From a virus (taxonomy: Duplodnaviria; Caudoviricetes), in IMG/VR virus record IMGVR_UViG_3300032287_002815, positions 1 to 46,806 of that record: a stretch of 46,806 nt of DNA. One strand, 5' to 3'. How positions within the stretch are numbered: the stretch's first letter is position 1; every line of letters starts with the position of its first letter. The notes below the pieces were generated by a model, which ran no database searches, had not been told where the DNA came from, and was given only the letters and a program-made list of their open reading frames with translations. The translations under genes were made by a program, and so were the position numbers. This document shows positions 7,414 to 19,359 of the stretch, piece after piece.

Positions 7414-7442
7414 ATCCTGCTAGCGCGACTTCCGAGTGTCAA
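7414..7442 (-). promoter_or_regulatory. Sigma70-type promoter for the capsid operon
   Basis: TTGACA (7442-7437), 17-bp spacer, CAGGAT (7419-7414). Confidence 0.65.
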
Positions 7443-7611
7443 CGGGTTTCTTGATCACCTCTGGAAGATCGTCTTCGCCCCGCAGGACATGATCCTCAAT
7501 CGCGATGATCAACACCGCCGTCTTCGTGCGCCGGGATCGAATCGCCTCATCTTCCAGCATCTGGGCGACCTCAATCGGCAGCCGGTAGCTCACTCGAATT
7601 GTGTTACTCAT
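7420..7611 (-). CDS. Ribbon-helix-helix (Arc/CopG-like) regulator, 63 aa
   Basis: IRVSYRLP beta strand followed by two helices (EVAQMLEDEA...TKTAVLIIAIEDHV). Confidence 0.7.
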   Translation of the reverse strand: MSNTIRVSYRLPIEVAQMLEDEAIRSRRTKTAVLIIAIEDHVLRGEDDLPEVIKKPVDTRKSR

Positions 7612-9058: not shown

Positions 9059-9430
9059 ATGACCGAATCCGAACTCCAAGCCCTCATACTCAGGGCGGCC
9101 GGCTCCAAAACGCACGTCCGAGTCTTCCGTAACCAAGTGGGCGAGGGATACGTTGGCAAGGCTCTCCGAGATCCCGAAGGCGTCTTCCTGACCGATGCCC
9201 GCCACGTCCGCATGGGATTATTCCCGGGCTCTGGTGACCTGATCGGCTGGCGCACGGTTACAGTCACGTCCGACATGGTCGGAAAACCCATCGCCCAGTT
9301 TCTCTCCATTGAAGTCAAAACACCAACCGGTAAGGTCCGGCCCGATCAGCGCAACTGGGCCGATCAGATCAACGCCGCCGGCGGTCTCGCCATCATTGCA
9401 CGATCCGTTAGCGATACAGACAACCTATGA
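9059..9430 (+). CDS. VRR-NUC (PD-(D/E)xK) nuclease
   Basis: MTESELQ...FRNQVG...GSGDLIG...IEVKT...Q...GGLAIIARS pattern. Confidence 0.85.
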   Translation: MTESELQALILRAAGSKTHVRVFRNQVGEGYVGKALRDPEGVFLTDARHVRMGLFPGSGDLIGWRTVTVTSDMVGKPIAQFLSIEVKTPTGKVRPDQRNWADQINAAGGLAIIARSVSDTDNL

Positions 9431-9609
9431 GCGACACAGCGACTACAACCCAAGCCCTACTCCAAACAGCCCCCGAAAACCTCTCAGCGGAAGCCAAGTA
9501 CCGTTTCTACGAACGCCTCGGAATCCTGTGTGGCAACGCGGTAGCAACACCTGAACAACTCCGGATCGCGCAGCTGGAAGCGGTCGAGTACGATATGAAT
9601 CACGACTGA
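9427..9609 (+). CDS. Hypothetical protein, 60 aa
   Basis: ATGA-coupled to the VRR-NUC gene; YERLGI motif. Confidence 0.6.
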   Translation: MSDTATTTQALLQTAPENLSAEAKYRFYERLGILCGNAVATPEQLRIAQLEAVEYDMNHD

Positions 9610-9703: not shown

Positions 9704-9952
9704 ATGACCCGTGATCAAATCGCAGACATCAATCCGGACCTCGTTGTCATGGACGGATTCGACGACTGCATCCTTGGGATCGGAACTCGATTCGGCAGTG
9801 AGCAATTCGTGATCTACGACTACGACAAAGTCATCACTCAGCTGGAATCCTACGGCATGACCTACGAAGAAGCCGTCGAATACCACGAATTCAACCAACT
9901 CGGCGCCTATGTGGGAGACCACACGCCAGCCTTTATGACAACCTCTCTCTAA
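9704..9952 (+). CDS. Conserved phage hypothetical protein (DGFDDCILG...EEAVEYHEFN..GAYVG..TP)
   Basis: Motif recalled as widespread in aquatic phages; ATG 9704. Confidence 0.75.
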   Translation: MTRDQIADINPDLVVMDGFDDCILGIGTRFGSEQFVIYDYDKVITQLESYGMTYEEAVEYHEFNQLGAYVGDHTPAFMTTSL

Positions 9953-9975
9953 CTCACCTCTCAGCAACTACAAGC

Positions 9976-12200
9976 ATGACCCTCACCGAACTCTCGGACG
10001 CACTCTCCGTCCGTGTCGCAGAACTCTGCGCTCAACTCCTCCCAGCCGGCCGTCAGGTCGGCCCCCAGTGGATCGTCGGCAACGTCTTCGGCGACCCGGG
10101 CGACTCCTGTTACGTCGAACTCCAAGGCCCAAAGCAGGGTCTGTGGTACGACCACGCCGCTGGTCAGGGCGGCGATCTCCTCGAACTCGTCGGCCAGCAT
10201 CACGTCTATTCCAAGGCCCAGGCCGCCCAGTGGTCCCGCGAATTCCTCGGTATCCGCGACGATTACCAGCCAGCACCCCGCACGTTTGACCCCCTCAAGC
10301 ACGGCCACCGTAACGACGCCTCCCAGCCGTACCGCTACGGCTCCGCAGCGTGGCCCTATCCCGACGCCGACGGCACGATCCGCGCCTACGTCGTCCGGTT
10401 CGACCTCCCCGACGGCTCCAAAGACGTCCGCCCACTCCGGTTCCTCCCGCCCGAAAACCAGCCTCCTGACCTCCTCAACCCCCGCCACTGCGCTGGAAGG
10501 GCTGGACCGCCCCCGAAGACGTCCCCATTTTCAACCTCCACCTCCTCGCCCGGCGCCCGAACGACCCGGTCCTCATCGTAGAAGGCGAGAAAACCGCCGT
10601 CGCAGCATCCAAGCTCTTCCCGTCCCACGTCGTCATCACCTGGCAGGGCGGCTCCAAGCGTGTCGGCCGTGCTGCTATCGACCCGCTCCTGACACGCACT
10701 ACACCCATCATCCTGTGGCCCGACAACGACAAACCCGGCCGGGACGCCATGGTCTACCTGAAGGCCCGCCTGCCCGCCGCCAAGCTGGTCCACCTCCCTG
10801 ATTCCCTCCCCGACGGCTGGGACCTCGCCGATCCGATCCCACCTGACGTATCCATCCAGGGCCTCCTCGACGCAGCTGGCGATCCACCCCGGCCGGTTCC
10901 CGCTGCGCCGCAGCCCGCGTCACCTAATCCGCTCGACGACCTCCATTACGACCCCAATTCCGGCCAGTGGTGGACCCGTAACGCCTGGGGCGATTACGCC
11001 CAGATCAACGGCGAGCGCGTCCGCACCCTCTTCACTGAGTCCGGCGTCTCCCCCACCAAGGACCAAACCGGTGCATCCGACGTCGACCGCGAACTCCTGC
11101 GGCGCACCCGGGACACCGTCATCGAATACGCCGGTCCACTCGCTGGCCACCGCGCCGGCCTGTACGGCACGATCCTCGTAACCCGCTCTGTCGTCCCGCT
11201 CGCTGCCGTCCCCGGCGACTGCGCCCGTCTCCAGACCTACCTCCACAACCTCCTTGACCAGAACGACGACCAGTACTGGCGCCTCATCTACTGGCTCGCG
11301 CTCCGCCGGCAGTCCGTCCTGACAGGCACCTGGCGATCATCGCAGGCGCTCGCCCTCGTCGGCCCCGCCGCGTGCGGCAAGTCCTTCGTGCAGTCTGCCG
11401 TTATCACACGCCTCCTCGGCGGCCGCATAGCAAAGCCATACCGCTACATGTCTGGCGCCACCGACTTCAACGGCGACCTCTTCACCTCTGAACACCTCTG
11501 CATCGAGGACGAGGCACCTGGCCGCGACATCCATTCCCGACGCACTCTTGGGTCCAACATCAAATCCATGCTGTTCGCCCAGAACCAGTCCTGCCACCCC
11601 AAGAACCGCCAAGCCATCACCCTCAAACCCATCTGGGCCATGTCCATCTCCCTCAACGACGAGCCCGAGAACCTCCAGGTCCTCCCGCCCCTCGACCCGT
11701 CCCTCATGGACAAACTCATTATCCTCCGATGCGTCCGTCAGACACTCCCCTGGACCGGCGACGAAATCACCATCCTCAAGGACATCCTCGACACCGAACT
11801 CTCCCAGTTCGCCCACTACCTCGACGGCCTCACCGTCCCAGACCACCTCGTCGAACCCCGCTGCGGCCTCAAGGCCTACCAGCACCCGGCTATCCTCGAG
11901 GAACTCATGCAGCTGTCACCAGAGCACCAACTCATCGGCCTCATCGACACCGTGATCTTCGAGAACGAATTCCTCACCTGGAGAGGTACGGCCGCCGACC
12001 TCGAGACCTCCCTGCGCGATTCCAAGTACGCCCGGGAAGCCGACCGCCTTTTCCGCTTCAACACCGCCTGCGGAGTCTACCTGGCGCGACTGCATGAGCA
12101 GGAACCGGAGCGGTTCAAGAAGACCAAATCGAAAAACAAGATCCGCTGGGCGATCACTCCGCCTCAGACTCTTGGGCTTGACAGCCAGACCATAGGGTAG
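9976..12200 (+). CDS. Primase-helicase (N-terminal domain + TOPRIM + P-loop ATPase) split by a -1 frameshift near 10479-10491 (~741 aa joined)
   Basis: The first frame gives the primase N-terminus (WYDHAAGQGGDLLEL). The frame of ORF 10749 is open from 10470 and encodes LIVEGEKT, WQGG, WPDND (TOPRIM), GWDLAD, Walker A GPAACGKS and Walker B LCIEDE. Confidence 0.85.
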
Positions 12201-13800: not shown

Positions 13801-14874
13801 ATGGAATACCACGATATCGACACTGCGACGGTGCAAGCCCTCCGCGATGAATGCCGCAAACTGAAACTCGGGACCGGGATGCAAATCGCCGGCGCTTCCA
13901 AGGCAACGCTCCAGACGGCGCTTCGGTCCAATGCATGGCCGGCCCCGGCTCCCGCTCAGGATCCAGCGGCGGCCCTGACGGCCGCACTGGCCGCACTGAT
14001 GCCGGCTCCCGGGATCGACGAAGACGCCGTGCGGCGTATCGTGCGGGAAGAGATCCCGGCCCCACCGACGATCCGGATTGAGATCCCGGGCCGGCCCGAG
14101 GTTGAAATCGGCCGGCAGCACGAGCGGTTCCCGCTGCTGCTGCAGGTGCTAGCGTGCGGTCTCAACGTGCTCCTCGTGGGCCCGGCCGGCACCGGGAAAA
14201 CGACGGCGGCGAGGAAGGCGGCCGAGGCTCTCGGGCTTGGGTTTTCCTGCCTGTCGGTGGGTCCCCAGACGTCGAAGTCCGATCTCCTCGGATTTGTGGA
14301 TGCCGGGGGCACGTACCGGGAGTCCTTGTTCGTCCAAGCCTATCGGGACGGGGGCGTGTTCTTGTTGGACGAGATCGACGCCGGGAACGCCGGCGTGTTG
14401 ACCGTGTTAAATGCGGCGCTGGCCGGCGACGTTATGGCCACGCCGATTGGGATGGTTGCCCGGTCCCCCCGGTTTTTGACGGTGGCCGGCGCGAACACGT
14501 ACGGGCAGGGAGCTTCCCGCCAGTACGTGGGAAGGAATCAGCTGGATGCGGCAACGCTGGATCGTTTCGCCGTTTTGGACTGGCCGGTGGACGAGGGACT
14601 GGAATCCGCGATGGTTGGGCTCCCGGCGCCGGCGCCGGTGCTGGACCTCGGCCGGGGCGGTTTGCTGGATGCGGCCGGGTGGCTCGCCCGGGTGCGTGCT
14701 GTGCGTGCTAGCGTTGAGAAACAACAGGTGCGAGCCGTCGTGAGCCCTCGGGCGACTCAGGCCGGCGTGGCGCTGCTAGCGGCCGGCGTGGGCCGGTATT
14801 GGACCGAGGAGATGGTTCTCTGGCGGGGGATGCCGGCCGAAGCCCGGACCCGGGTGGAAGGGGGCGCGAAGTGA
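13801..14874 (+). CDS. MoxR/CbbQ/CobS-like AAA+ ATPase
   Basis: Walker A GPAGTGKT, Walker B FLLDEID, sensor GANTYG, YVGRNQLDAATLDRF. Confidence 0.92.
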   Translation: MEYHDIDTATVQALRDECRKLKLGTGMQIAGASKATLQTALRSNAWPAPAPAQDPAAALTAALAALMPAPGIDEDAVRRIVREEIPAPPTIRIEIPGRPEVEIGRQHERFPLLLQVLACGLNVLLVGPAGTGKTTAARKAAEALGLGFSCLSVGPQTSKSDLLGFVDAGGTYRESLFVQAYRDGGVFLLDEIDAGNAGVLTVLNAALAGDVMATPIGMVARSPRFLTVAGANTYGQGASRQYVGRNQLDAATLDRFAVLDWPVDEGLESAMVGLPAPAPVLDLGRGGLLDAAGWLARVRAVRASVEKQQVRAVVSPRATQAGVALLAAGVGRYWTEEMVLWRGMPAEARTRVEGGAK

Positions 14875-15656
14875 GCCGCACGACGATCGAATGCGATGGG
14901 CTCGCGGCGTTCCTGAGCCCGGGACCGAGGCAGGCGCTGCCCGAACGCGATAGCAGCGAATCCGGCACGCTGGAATTCACCGGGACCAGATCCTACGGGG
15001 AAGCCGTCCGGATTATGCGCGAGGGGTGGCCAGAAGCTGCCGAACAGGCCCGGGCGCTGAGTGCTCAGCTGAACAGCGAGACGGCCGACAGCATGACGTG
15101 CGAGCGGCCGTCCCCCGTTTGGGACGTGGCCGGCGACGATGCCGACGTGGCGCGATATCTGGAAGGCGAGCCCGAGAATATGGTGGCTTGGATGCCTGAT
15201 CCGGTGCCGGCGGCGGGGCGGGTTGTGCGTCTGCTGTTGGGTGGCCGGGTGGCGTTTCACGTCACGGCCGAGATGATGCGCACGGCGGCCGTGATGCTGG
15301 CGGCAGCGGCCGATGCGCTGGAAGCCCGGGGCGTGCGGGTTGAAATCGTGGTCGCCTATGCCGTGTCGTGGGGAACAACCATGCTGGAAATCCGGCACCG
15401 CCTGAAAGCGGCCGAGGAGCCGCTGGACCTGCCCCGGGTTGTGGCCGGGATGCATCCGAGTGCGTTCCGCCGGGTGGCGTTCCGGTGGATGGAAACCGTG
15501 GCGGACCTGCCGGCCGGGTATGGTTGCGGCGGGACCATCACGACGGCCGAGGGGGACGTGGTCTTGAACATCGAAAAGCTCTCCGCGATCAAGCCCGAGG
15601 GCCGGGTGGCGTGGTTGAGGCAGCAAGCCGAGGCGGTGCTCGGGATCCCGGCCTGA
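14871..15656 (+). CDS. AAA-partner protein with a degenerate VWA-like domain
   Basis: GTGA-coupled to the ATPase; FTGTRSYGEA...GW, DVARYLEGEPENM, ADALEARGVRVEI, HPSAFRR motifs. Confidence 0.7.
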   Translation: MSRTTIECDGLAAFLSPGPRQALPERDSSESGTLEFTGTRSYGEAVRIMREGWPEAAEQARALSAQLNSETADSMTCERPSPVWDVAGDDADVARYLEGEPENMVAWMPDPVPAAGRVVRLLLGGRVAFHVTAEMMRTAAVMLAAAADALEARGVRVEIVVAYAVSWGTTMLEIRHRLKAAEEPLDLPRVVAGMHPSAFRRVAFRWMETVADLPAGYGCGGTITTAEGDVVLNIEKLSAIKPEGRVAWLRQQAEAVLGIPA

Positions 15657-15752
15657 GTAGAGCACGGCCGGCCCTTCGGGGCCTGCCCTCTCTGCCCAGA
15701 CGGGTTGACGGACGCCGGGCCGATCCCGGCGGGAAACACGACAGGAAAAACT

Positions 15753-16388
15753 ATGAAGACGACAGAACAGGACCCCCGCACGGTGCTAGCTAAGAGCCTC
15801 CGGATTGATCCAGCGGCGCGAACGATCACGCCGGCGGTGGACAGCTGGAATTCGGCGCTGGAATGGATCGGGGCGGACTTGCTCGAACGGGTGGGGTGCG
15901 GGGCCGGCGTTGACTGCTGGATTGACGAGGAAGGGATGCTCCGCGACGGGGCCGATCACTGGATTCTCGGGGGCGAGCAGCTGCTGGCCGGCCGGGCCGT
16001 CGTGGTGGGCGGCGTTGGTGGGGAGTGGACGGATTTACCGATCCCGACCGGAGTCGTTGCAGCGGCGGTGGGTTGGATCCCGAACGCGTTCAGGGCGCAG
16101 GCGCAGGAGATCGCGGACGGGATGCGGCCGGTGGCCGTGGCGTGGAACGCCGATGGGATGGCGCAGCTGGAGAAAATGAACCGCGAGCACGCCGGCCGGG
16201 TGGAATTGCTGGCCGTGGCGTCCGTGCAGGGAATGGAAATGCTAGCACTCGGGGACTGCGTGACCGGTCCGGACGGGATAACCGGGTTTGTCCAGGCGAT
16301 CAACGGGGACCGGGTGACGGTGCTGACGTTGGACGGGACGCCGGTATTTGACCGGACGGAGTTGGTGAAGGTTGAGGAAATCGACTGA
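15753..16388 (+). CDS. Early hypothetical protein (DUF3846-like, WIDEEG motif), 211 aa
   Basis: ATG 15753 after AGGAAAAACT; DCWIDEEGML...LAGRAVVVG. Confidence 0.65.
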   Translation: MKTTEQDPRTVLAKSLRIDPAARTITPAVDSWNSALEWIGADLLERVGCGAGVDCWIDEEGMLRDGADHWILGGEQLLAGRAVVVGGVGGEWTDLPIPTGVVAAAVGWIPNAFRAQAQEIADGMRPVAVAWNADGMAQLEKMNREHAGRVELLAVASVQGMEMLALGDCVTGPDGITGFVQAINGDRVTVLTLDGTPVFDRTELVKVEEID

Positions 16389-16452
16389 CCCGGCGGGGCC
16401 CTGAGTGACAGGCGGGGCCCCTGCGGATCGGTTGATCCAGAGACAACAAACT

Positions 16453-16731
16453 ATGAAAACACATAACAGCCCCGGCCCGTGGCATACCCAAGGATGCACG
16501 ATCTACGCCGGAAAGAACCGGGTCGCTCAAACATGGGACACGTGGTACGACGGCCTGCCGACGCCCACGATGGAAGCCGATGCGGGTTTGATCGCAGCTG
16601 CGCCGGAGATGCTAGCGGCTCTCCAAGCGGCCCTAGTCGCCGTCCGATACCTCGATGATCACGAAGGCGCTGAGGAGCTTATGAAGCAGGTGTGCGAGGC
16701 GATTATTAAGGCCAAGGGGGGTGTGAAGTGA
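16453..16731 (+). CDS. Phage hypothetical protein (PGPW...LIAAAPEML family), 92 aa
   Basis: Characteristic widespread phage motif; ATG 16453. Confidence 0.8.
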   Translation: MKTHNSPGPWHTQGCTIYAGKNRVAQTWDTWYDGLPTPTMEADAGLIAAAPEMLAALQAALVAVRYLDDHEGAEELMKQVCEAIIKAKGGVK

Positions 16732-17716: not shown

Positions 17717-17722
17717 TTCACA

Positions 17723-17753
17723 AGGAGGGCTCCTTGCGGGGCCCTCTTTTCTT
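17723..17753 (+). terminator. Intrinsic terminator ending the early operon
   Basis: GAGGGCTCC-TTGC-GGGGCCCTC-TTTTCTT. Confidence 0.7.
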
Positions 17754-18483: not shown

Positions 18484-18695
18484 AGCGCAAGGTCGTGATC
18501 GTGCTGGAGGATTCTGACGACGGGTTCTCCCGCCAGATGTACGTCGAGCCGCCGCTACCTGCGGATATGAACGAGACTCAGCCTACACCGGCATTGCTCT
18601 GCGCGATGGTTGTGCATCGAGCGATTCAGGCGTTCGTGGAAGCGGGGGAACCGGAGGAGAAACCCACGCAGGAGAAAGCCGATGACCAAAACTGA
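18480..18695 (+). CDS. Hypothetical protein, 71 aa
   Basis: ATGA coupling. Confidence 0.6.
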   Translation: MKRKVVIVLEDSDDGFSRQMYVEPPLPADMNETQPTPALLCAMVVHRAIQAFVEAGEPEEKPTQEKADDQN

Positions 18696-18984
18696 CCTGA
18701 TCCATGCGCTTGCTGAAGAGTGCGGTCTGCTGGTTCCTCACGCTCGGCAGATTGTCGATCGGATGTTCGACCTGATGATGGACGCGACCTTGGCCAGTGG
18801 GTTTGAGGTCAGGGGATTCGGCTTACTGGAGACTCGAATGACCAAGCCGATGATCGGACGGAACCCGCTGAAGCCCGATGTTGAGATCGTGATTCCGCCC
18901 CGGCCGAAGGTAGTATTCCGTCCGTCGAAAGAGTTCCGAGATCGGGCGATCAAAACACTTGCGGTTGGGGGTCGTAAAAAGTAG
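18682..18984 (+). CDS. HU/IHF-family DNA-binding protein, 100 aa
   Basis: MTKTDLI...EVRGFG...GRNP..P....IP....VVFRPSK signature. Confidence 0.88.
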   Translation: MTKTDLIHALAEECGLLVPHARQIVDRMFDLMMDATLASGFEVRGFGLLETRMTKPMIGRNPLKPDVEIVIPPRPKVVFRPSKEFRDRAIKTLAVGGRKK

Positions 18985-18987
18985 GAT
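18959..18987 (+). promoter_or_regulatory. Promoter for a short non-coding transcript
   Basis: TTGCGG-17-TAGGAT with no ORF before the terminator. Confidence 0.5.
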
Positions 18988-18993
18988 ACCACC

Positions 18994-19054
18994 GCTTGTA
19001 GTGCTGTTCATAGTTGTCGAGCCCCCTAGGATTGAGAGGTCCTAGGGGGTTTTT
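18994..19054 (+). ncRNA. Candidate ~60-nt antisense sRNA
   Basis: Promoter, then a single-stranded TTCATAGTTGTC seed, then a terminator. Confidence 0.45.
19022..19054 (+). terminator. Intrinsic terminator
   Basis: CCCCCTAGGA-TTGAGAGG-TCCTAGGGGG-TTTTT. Confidence 0.9.
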
Positions 19055-19149
19055 GTTGGTCACCCCTCCCGGCGTCCGACCGAGAGGGGCACAAGCCGAT
19101 ACCAGACCGATGGGTGGGAAAAACTATGAAACCACCCCGGCCACGTCGG

Positions 19150-19359
19150 TTACCCAAAAGTGGCTGATAGCACGCCTGGAACCTTGCGGAGGTTCGCCAG
19201 GAGCGCGTCAGGAGTCTGCGAGTTGGACACGCAGATGCCAATGAGATCCTTGCGAGCGCGGTCGCTGAGATCCTTGGTGTCGATTACGACCACCCGGTTA
19301 CCGGATAACGCGATCCGATGGATGCCGGTGGATTGCTTCGATGATGCGGGCGTCTTCAC
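19150..19359 (-). CDS. Hypothetical protein, ~69 aa
   Basis: Last ORF of the leftward operon; ends ...LRKVPGVLSATFG; start uncertain. Confidence 0.55.
   Translation of the reverse strand: MKTPASSKQSTGIHRIALSGNRVVVIDTKDLSDRARKDLIGICVSNSQTPDALLANLRKVPGVLSATFG

Follow-up and report, generated by a model that had tools for sequence, protein, structure and literature searches.

A predicted small RNA at the end of a phage HU gene complementary to the leader of the phage's own primase-helicase gene

The window considered here, i.e., the whole stretch of 46,806 nucleotides that was analysed, is a tailed-phage record (46.8 kb) in which the end of an HU/IHF-family gene carries a conserved unit that is likely a small-RNA gene with a predicted transcript. 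The promoter boxes and the terminator of this unit are conserved, as is the complementarity between the first bases of the predicted RNA and the leader of the primase-helicase gene, in which compensatory change has occurred. From these comparisons we consider it probable that a trans-acting small RNA, transcribed from the HU end, pairs with the primase-helicase mRNA and represses its translation. A trans-acting RNA directed against translation starts had already been proposed for this position; this part of the original prediction is well supported, but the target kept across the family is the primase-helicase start, which would be reached through the 5' end of the RNA.

In addition to the primase-helicase, the window encodes a terminase, virion proteins, RecT/exonuclease VIII, a helicase and a VRR-NUC nuclease, and its early region contains an AAA_5 ATPase (PHROG 249) with a DUF7192 partner (13801-15656). 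A small TraY-like gene is a candidate repressor. No integrase was detected among 45 ORFs (Pfam) or 26 (PHROGs), which does not settle the lifestyle of the phage. The features discussed here are listed in Table 1.

Table 1. Positions of the genes, signals and predicted RNA elements in the window
Feature	Position	Strand	Evidence or remark
Small TraY-like ribbon-helix-helix gene	7420-7611	-	divergent from the helicase operon
Predicted secondary target GACAACCUAUGAGC	9419..9432	+	start of a 60-aa gene in the primase operon; rank 1/60
Primary target site ACUACAAGC	9967..9975	+	non-coding, directly before the primase-helicase AUG
Primase-helicase gene	9976..12200	+	PHROG 239 DNA primase/helicase, E 2e-15; weak Toprim; DUF6371 and DUF5906 (full-length proteins of relatives)
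Predicted secondary target, start of gene 15753	15749..15757	+	9-nt exact complement; rank 3/60
Predicted secondary target, start of gene 16453	16442..16457	+	9-nt exact complement plus GACAAC; rank 4/60
HU/IHF-family gene	18682..18984	+	PF00216, E 1.6e-15; last codons and stop hold the predicted promoter
Predicted -35 box TTGCGG	18959..18964	+	TTGC invariant in 49/49 distinct versions
Predicted -10 box TAGGAT	18982..18987	+	overlaps the HU stop; T1, A2 and T6 invariant in 49/49
Predicted small RNA, ~61 nt	18994..19054	+	conservation of promoter and terminator; 5' end inferred from the -10 spacing
5' seed GCUUGUAG(U)	18994..19002	+	complement of the primase-helicase leader; invariant in 94/94 HU records reaching the region
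Variable G/U-rich region, predicted second seed	19003..19018	+	clade-specific UUCAUAG and invariant GUUG (19013-19016); alignment and target ranking
Intrinsic terminator hairpin and U-run	19019..19054	+	stem 19019-19052, T-run 19050-19054; top terminator match

The relatives of the window phage come from freshwater-type collections, and a search with the primase lists about 50 clusters close to it. Ten further genomes were read besides the window (11 in total, labelled G), giving 598 called starts; the gene caller was home-made and overlooked some short genes, including HU and 17758 in the window. For the HU locus, 27 viral and 69 metagenome loci were gathered, which together with the window make 97 records. 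Three of these stop short of the region and one is without the terminator end; the remaining 93 carry the whole unit in 49 distinct versions, the records including the same contig from two collections. Across the records carrying the region, HU identity ranges from 47 to 100%.

The predicted promoter lies within the coding sequence of HU, in which 29 residues separate the PRPK motif from the stop, as they do in all homologs that were parsed correctly. TTGCGG spans the codons of a Leu-Ala pair and the TAG stop supplies the first three bases of the -10 box, the two boxes being separated by 17 nt in all 49 versions. Positions 3-5 of the -10 box vary among the versions (TAnnnT), and the encoded HU tail varies too. 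Codon choice is also unusual at these positions: the Leu codon in the -35 box is CTT in 48/49 versions vs 14% of Leu codons family-wide, and the lone Leu-to-Val version still has TTG. Moreover, HU ends on TAG or TAA in 49/49 versions and never on TGA, the stop of 198/336 called genes. A scan with the promoter consensus did not place the HU-end promoter among its listed promoters (8/12 matches), so that the support for this promoter comes from conservation and not from the consensus scan. The boxes and the 17-nt spacer are thus where TTGCGG-17-TAGGAT had been placed originally, but the promoter is not free-standing, as it overlaps the HU 3' end that had been overlooked.

Downstream of these boxes, GCTTGTAG begins 7 nt past the -10 box in 94/94 records; in the window, GTGCTGTTCATAGTTGTC occupies 19001-19018. 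The consensus fold consists of the terminator stem only, with the seed unpaired at the 5' terminus; this stem has 11 consensus pairs, none of which is broken in the 49 sequences and two of which show changes on both sides. Together with the fold z of -4.6 (18994-19058) and the rank of the terminator, this conservation bears out the earlier view of a unit of about 60 nt bounded by a strong terminator. It is by conservation, too, that the unit appears bounded upstream by its own promoter. Twenty-two RNA runs contain part of the window stretch. In four of these, contigs of a relative 90-99% alike run across HU and the unit, although they cannot show ends, strand or RNA origin; the depth of the assembled contigs across the terminator drops in two runs (42 to 8 and 15 to 4) and continues in two, and likewise gives neither ends nor strand. 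Rfam covariance models (including C4) gave no match at the gathering score over the whole window. Beyond the terminator, a second conserved hairpin (19055-19100) lies at the end of a convergent minus-strand operon, and relatives also conserve an unannotated 69-aa gene on the minus strand (19150-19359).

The HU stop codon is straddled by an imperfect inverted repeat (18961-18995), which could hide the first seed bases within a long HU mRNA. The same RNA-RNA pairing could also be brought about by the HU operon mRNA, its 3' UTR or a processed fragment supplying the seed with no promoter of its own. The unit does use the HU terminator, and the inverted repeat would offer a possible processing stem, with 81% of cells paired and two pairs changed on both sides. 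However, RNAalifold drops this stem from the consensus fold, two of its eight pairs being broken in 16 and 37 of the 49 sequences, and a -35/-10 signature of fixed spacing followed by the seed at exactly the same distance in all versions argues for transcription from the unit itself. We regard processing from the HU mRNA as improbable and retain a small RNA with its own promoter.

The seed points to a single distant site. The window contains exactly two copies of ACTACAAGC, one at 9967-9975 and the other as the reverse complement of 18994-19002, vs 0.10 copies expected, and none of 100 shuffles reaches two. No exact complement to the single-stranded part of the RNA is longer than 9 nt, and the copy before the primase-helicase ATG is one of those that reach this length; it is the best conserved one and had been passed over when the complements were originally chosen. 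CUACAAGC, the complement of the seed, stands 0-4 nt upstream of the primase-helicase start in 11/11 genomes, and CTACAAGC precedes this start in 27/27 viral loci (the ten read genomes included), in a non-coding gap whose flanks vary. Among the 598 starts, CTACAAGC is also the only 8-mer found in the -20..-1 region of some called start in all 11 genomes. A role of CTACAAGC as an alternative Shine-Dalgarno sequence was discarded, just 12/598 starts bearing it. Relative to the AUG, this tag occupies positions -8..-1 or -12..-5 of an unstructured C/A-rich leader. It should be added that extra early genes with CTACAAGC 0-2 nt before their own start were seen in G008 (gene at 14437) and G010 (near 14121).

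The primase-helicase is intact in the relatives (737-745 aa). In the window it is split into frames of 201 and 483 aa, one base being short near 10490 compared with L199, which may reflect an assembly error or a true pseudogene.

In an accessibility-corrected pairing scan (43-61 starts per genome, four window genes having been added by hand), the primase start comes out on top in 6 of the 11 genomes and in second place in the other 5. Shuffled RNAs never reach the real primase energy of their own genome (0/154), and they place the primase among the top two in 29/154 trials, from which it follows that its leader is compositionally easy to pair. All 24 distinct pairs of RNA and leader on the same contig share 8-10 contiguous Watson-Crick pairs counted from RNA base 1. 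The target lies 9 kb from the RNA unit, and no conserved gene is found on the opposite strand at the unit. The complete distant phage G011, with a primase about 50% identical, has neither an HU homolog nor the tag, which is a single case, and at thirteen distant primase loci no terminator-linked complement above 8 nt was found. A compensatory RNA in G011 was considered and rejected, since none of the 7 plus-strand copies of the leader complement falls in a promoter-terminator unit. G011 (L312/L311) also carries repeated GTCTCTCCGGCTGTC units, intergenic, between the exonuclease and RecT genes.

In one relative, both partners of the pairing have changed together. On the L316 contig, the RNA reads GCUUGUGG and the leader CCACAAGC, the RNA unit beginning with GCTTGTGG 7.6 kb downstream of the variant leader; an A-U pair has thereby become G-C at seed position 7. 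As L316 branches from within the family tree, next to the G005 clade (support 94/96), both of its changes are derived. The L316 RNA may still act on the common leader through G-U pairing. At position 9, the G001/G004 clade has G-C where its sister clades have U-A; the MELHEL clade has a mismatch there, and its site lies 4 nt further from the AUG. Two events make up the compensation of the seed, one within the 8-mer and the other at position 9, and the counts given above are not independent because the genomes are related. The seed, which is conserved and complements a translation-initiation region far away, shows compensatory change. For the variable region, own RNAs pair with their own starts no better than the RNAs of relatives do, and co-evolution of this region is therefore not shown. 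Among seven family primases in genome bins, four have CTACAAGC, two have CCACAAGC and one (L319) has neither; on the contig of L318, which has the variant tag, no RNA unit was found, and an RNA with GCUUGUGG is predicted for this type of phage. Tandem copies of the tag (CCACAAGC followed by CTACAAGC or CCACAAGC) were observed in primase leaders (L315:2028-2049, L317:5505-5527 and L318:5701-5723) and are a possible intermediate for seed switching.

Conservation of this kind could also come from CTACAAGC being a DNA site, i.e., an operator or a primase/origin signal, of which there is one copy in each orientation, with no pairing of RNAs. A site for a protein would likewise be kept at both places, both would change if the protein changed, and one copy does overlap the predicted transcription start. 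On the other hand, the match ends exactly at the predicted +1, and the other copy is tied to the start codon (0-4 nt) and has nothing resembling promoter boxes nearby (scan from 10000 onward; 9920-10020 read directly). Moreover, the orientation is that required for RNA pairing, and additional pairing goes on with bulges and G-U pairs. A DNA site has a slim chance of being the explanation, and pairing between the small RNA and the primase-helicase leader accounts better for these features.

The variable half of the RNA may reach further starts. The top four of the 60 starts scanned in the window with correction for accessibility are 9427, 9976, 15753 and 16453. The start of the 60-aa gene (9427), for which no family was found in PHROGs or ESM Atlas, ranks first also in G003 and G007, and is within the top seven in 9/11 genomes. 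In most clades the GUUG block pairs with the start of this small upstream gene (GACAACCUAUG/GUG), best when UUCAUAG is present, but the site is also constrained by an overlapping stop codon. It is plausible, though not established, that 9427, 15753 and 16453 are clade-specific secondary targets. The recT start (23585, minus strand), suggested by a duplex scan without accessibility, was not retained, as it ranks sixth with accessibility and enters the top seven in one other genome; in such plain duplex scans of whole loci, G-U-rich noise dominates. Stable hairpins were seen just upstream of the A/C-rich leaders of 15753, 16453 and 17758 (15655-15750, 16385-16440 and 17722-17750).

Two of these starts, 15753 and 16453, had been named in the original prediction, in which the RNA served mainly to silence, through UUCAUAG, early phage genes and host genes that have CUAUGAA-type starts. 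Apart from their ranks, this role is favoured by AACTATGAA, which occurs four times in the window vs 0.15 expected, a number reached in 0/100 shuffles; the sites are 15749 and 16449 (gene starts), 19007 (minus strand, in the small-RNA element) and 19122. The fourth was set aside, since it opens a frame of 13 codons only and is altered in 5/7 close relatives. UUCAUAG itself, however, is found in 37/93 records and in 15/49 distinct versions, whereas the 5' seed is found in all, so that UUCAUAG is not the conserved seed it had been taken for. Moreover, CTATGAA starts also occur in relatives without UUCAUAG, which speaks against a general shut-off of such starts. The third proposed target, 17758, also opens with CTATGAA, but its duplex is weak (-13.3 kcal/mol) and outside the top seven; the gene encodes an SLT transglycosylase (PF01464), not shown to be a lysozyme as it had been labelled.

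When viral contigs were searched for GTTCATAGTT followed by a G4-T5 terminator end, at least 119 matches were listed (about 140 estimated), 32 of them distinct and falling into 12 clusters. A terminator hairpin is present in 11 of these clusters, and the remaining one represents a genuine gene start on the opposite strand. With two scrambled controls, the matches numbered 4 and 8, with a hairpin in two of three and two of five clusters, respectively, and the sense control gave none. Counted by lineage, GTTCATAGTT exceeds the controls about five-fold, a figure based on a single motif and three controls, and TAG is also a stop codon in two clusters. Unrelated phage lineages in which GTTCATAGTT directly precedes a terminator hairpin, the opposite strand lacking a long ORF, are represented by L009, L010, L015, L027, L028, L031, L058, L008, L113 and L122. 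This recurrence adds to the case for silencing through UUCAUAG, which as the main role of the RNA nevertheless seems very unlikely to us. That the motif is merely chance, or that a real gene on the minus strand begins there (MNST..., 18823-19011), the latter having been raised at the outset, is hardly credible, for although a 62-codon frame opens there with an ATG, this frame measures 28, 62, 100, 140 or 142 codons in near-identical relatives, lacks the ATG in most clades, belongs to no Pfam family and is antisense to HU.

For the small RNA directed at the primase-helicase, the following mechanism is proposed. A predicted host-type promoter in the HU end would start the RNA at 18994, and transcription would end at the terminator common to the HU gene and the RNA unit. 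The 5'-terminal 8-10 bases of the RNA would pair with the leader directly before the primase-helicase start; as this pairing would lie inside the ribosome footprint, next to the AUG, it would occlude the 30S subunit and lead to repression. The variable G/U-rich half would add pairing with the primase leader and the clade-specific secondary targets, the extra bulged pairing stabilising the duplex without Hfq. Most likely, the RNA would serve to cap or delay the primase-helicase as a replication enzyme.

The RNA would probably act without Hfq. Close primases lie in genome bins labelled Verrucomicrobiota in 3/7 cases and in bins of four other lineages once each, and one further close primase is also in a Verrucomicrobiota bin, so that the bins, although weak evidence, suggest a verrucomicrobial host as likely. 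Hfq was found in none of 61 sampled genomes from the class of the L316 bin (G012), the host itself being suggested by the bins alone.

Antisense RNAs of plasmids control the translation of Rep proteins, are encoded in cis and have long complementarity; the HU-end RNA would resemble them as an RNA control of a rate-limiting replication protein. RybB-type sRNAs are chromosomal and Hfq-bound, with a 5' seed or an origin in a 3' UTR. The HU-end RNA is similar to them in its 5'-terminal seed and in having its gene in a 3' UTR with an internal promoter.

Among phage RNAs covered in the part of PMC12197685 consulted, c4 of P1/P7 is a trans-acting RNA of 77 nt which, through complementary sequences in loops, pairs close to the ribosome binding site on the antirepressor mRNA of the phage and blocks its translation; its differences between P1 and P7 lead to heteroimmunity. 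The HU-end RNA is likewise short and would act in trans by blocking a phage ribosome binding site, but it differs from c4 as described there in its 5'-terminal single-stranded seed, its one terminator stem, its primase-helicase target and the absence of an Rfam match; neither an antirepressor (ant) target nor a multi-stem display of loops was found. The same part of that source describes sar (P22) and OOP (lambda) as promoter-to-terminator RNAs of 68-77 nt which lower the translation or stability of phage mRNAs and target lysis-lysogeny regulators (ant, cII), OOP being encoded opposite its own target (PMC12197685). Unlike these, to the extent that they are described there, the HU-end RNA is not encoded opposite its target, which lies 9 kb away and is contacted through a core of 8-10 bp. 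PreS (lambda) and VpdS (VP882) are trans-acting phage sRNAs that influence phage DNA replication, both need Hfq, and PreS acts on host dnaN (PMC12197685, same part). By comparison with what is given there, the predicted target of the HU-end RNA is the phage's own replication gene, in a likely host class with no Hfq in the sampled genomes.

Searches of an open-access library gave no description of the HU-end RNA, nor of any sRNA with which a phage acts on its own primase. Four seed strings are absent from six supplementary files of PMC10690425; three other files of that paper could list the RNA as a candidate. The phage-on-phage antisense RNAs in the consulted part of PMC12197685 hit lysis-lysogeny or lysis genes, and none hits the phage's own replicative primase-helicase.

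As the RNA and its predicted target site are both defined and a compensatory pair exists in nature, the mechanism becomes testable with two short constructs. The compensatory change gives comparative support to phage RNAs directed against starts, and the HU-end RNA suggests riboregulation without Hfq in a host that is likely verrucomicrobial. A bolder reading, which is speculative and in our opinion rather unlikely, is that the RNA would serve as a replication-licensing and incompatibility device. Nearly all members of the family share the same seed and primase tag, and in this reading the RNA of a resident phage would therefore also mute the primase-helicase of co-infecting relatives; L316-type phages would be escape variants, and the RNA would belong to a widespread, undescribed group of terminator-anchored, start-mirroring phage RNAs in hosts lacking Hfq. 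If this were true, the escape types would resemble plasmid incompatibility groups, within a phage.
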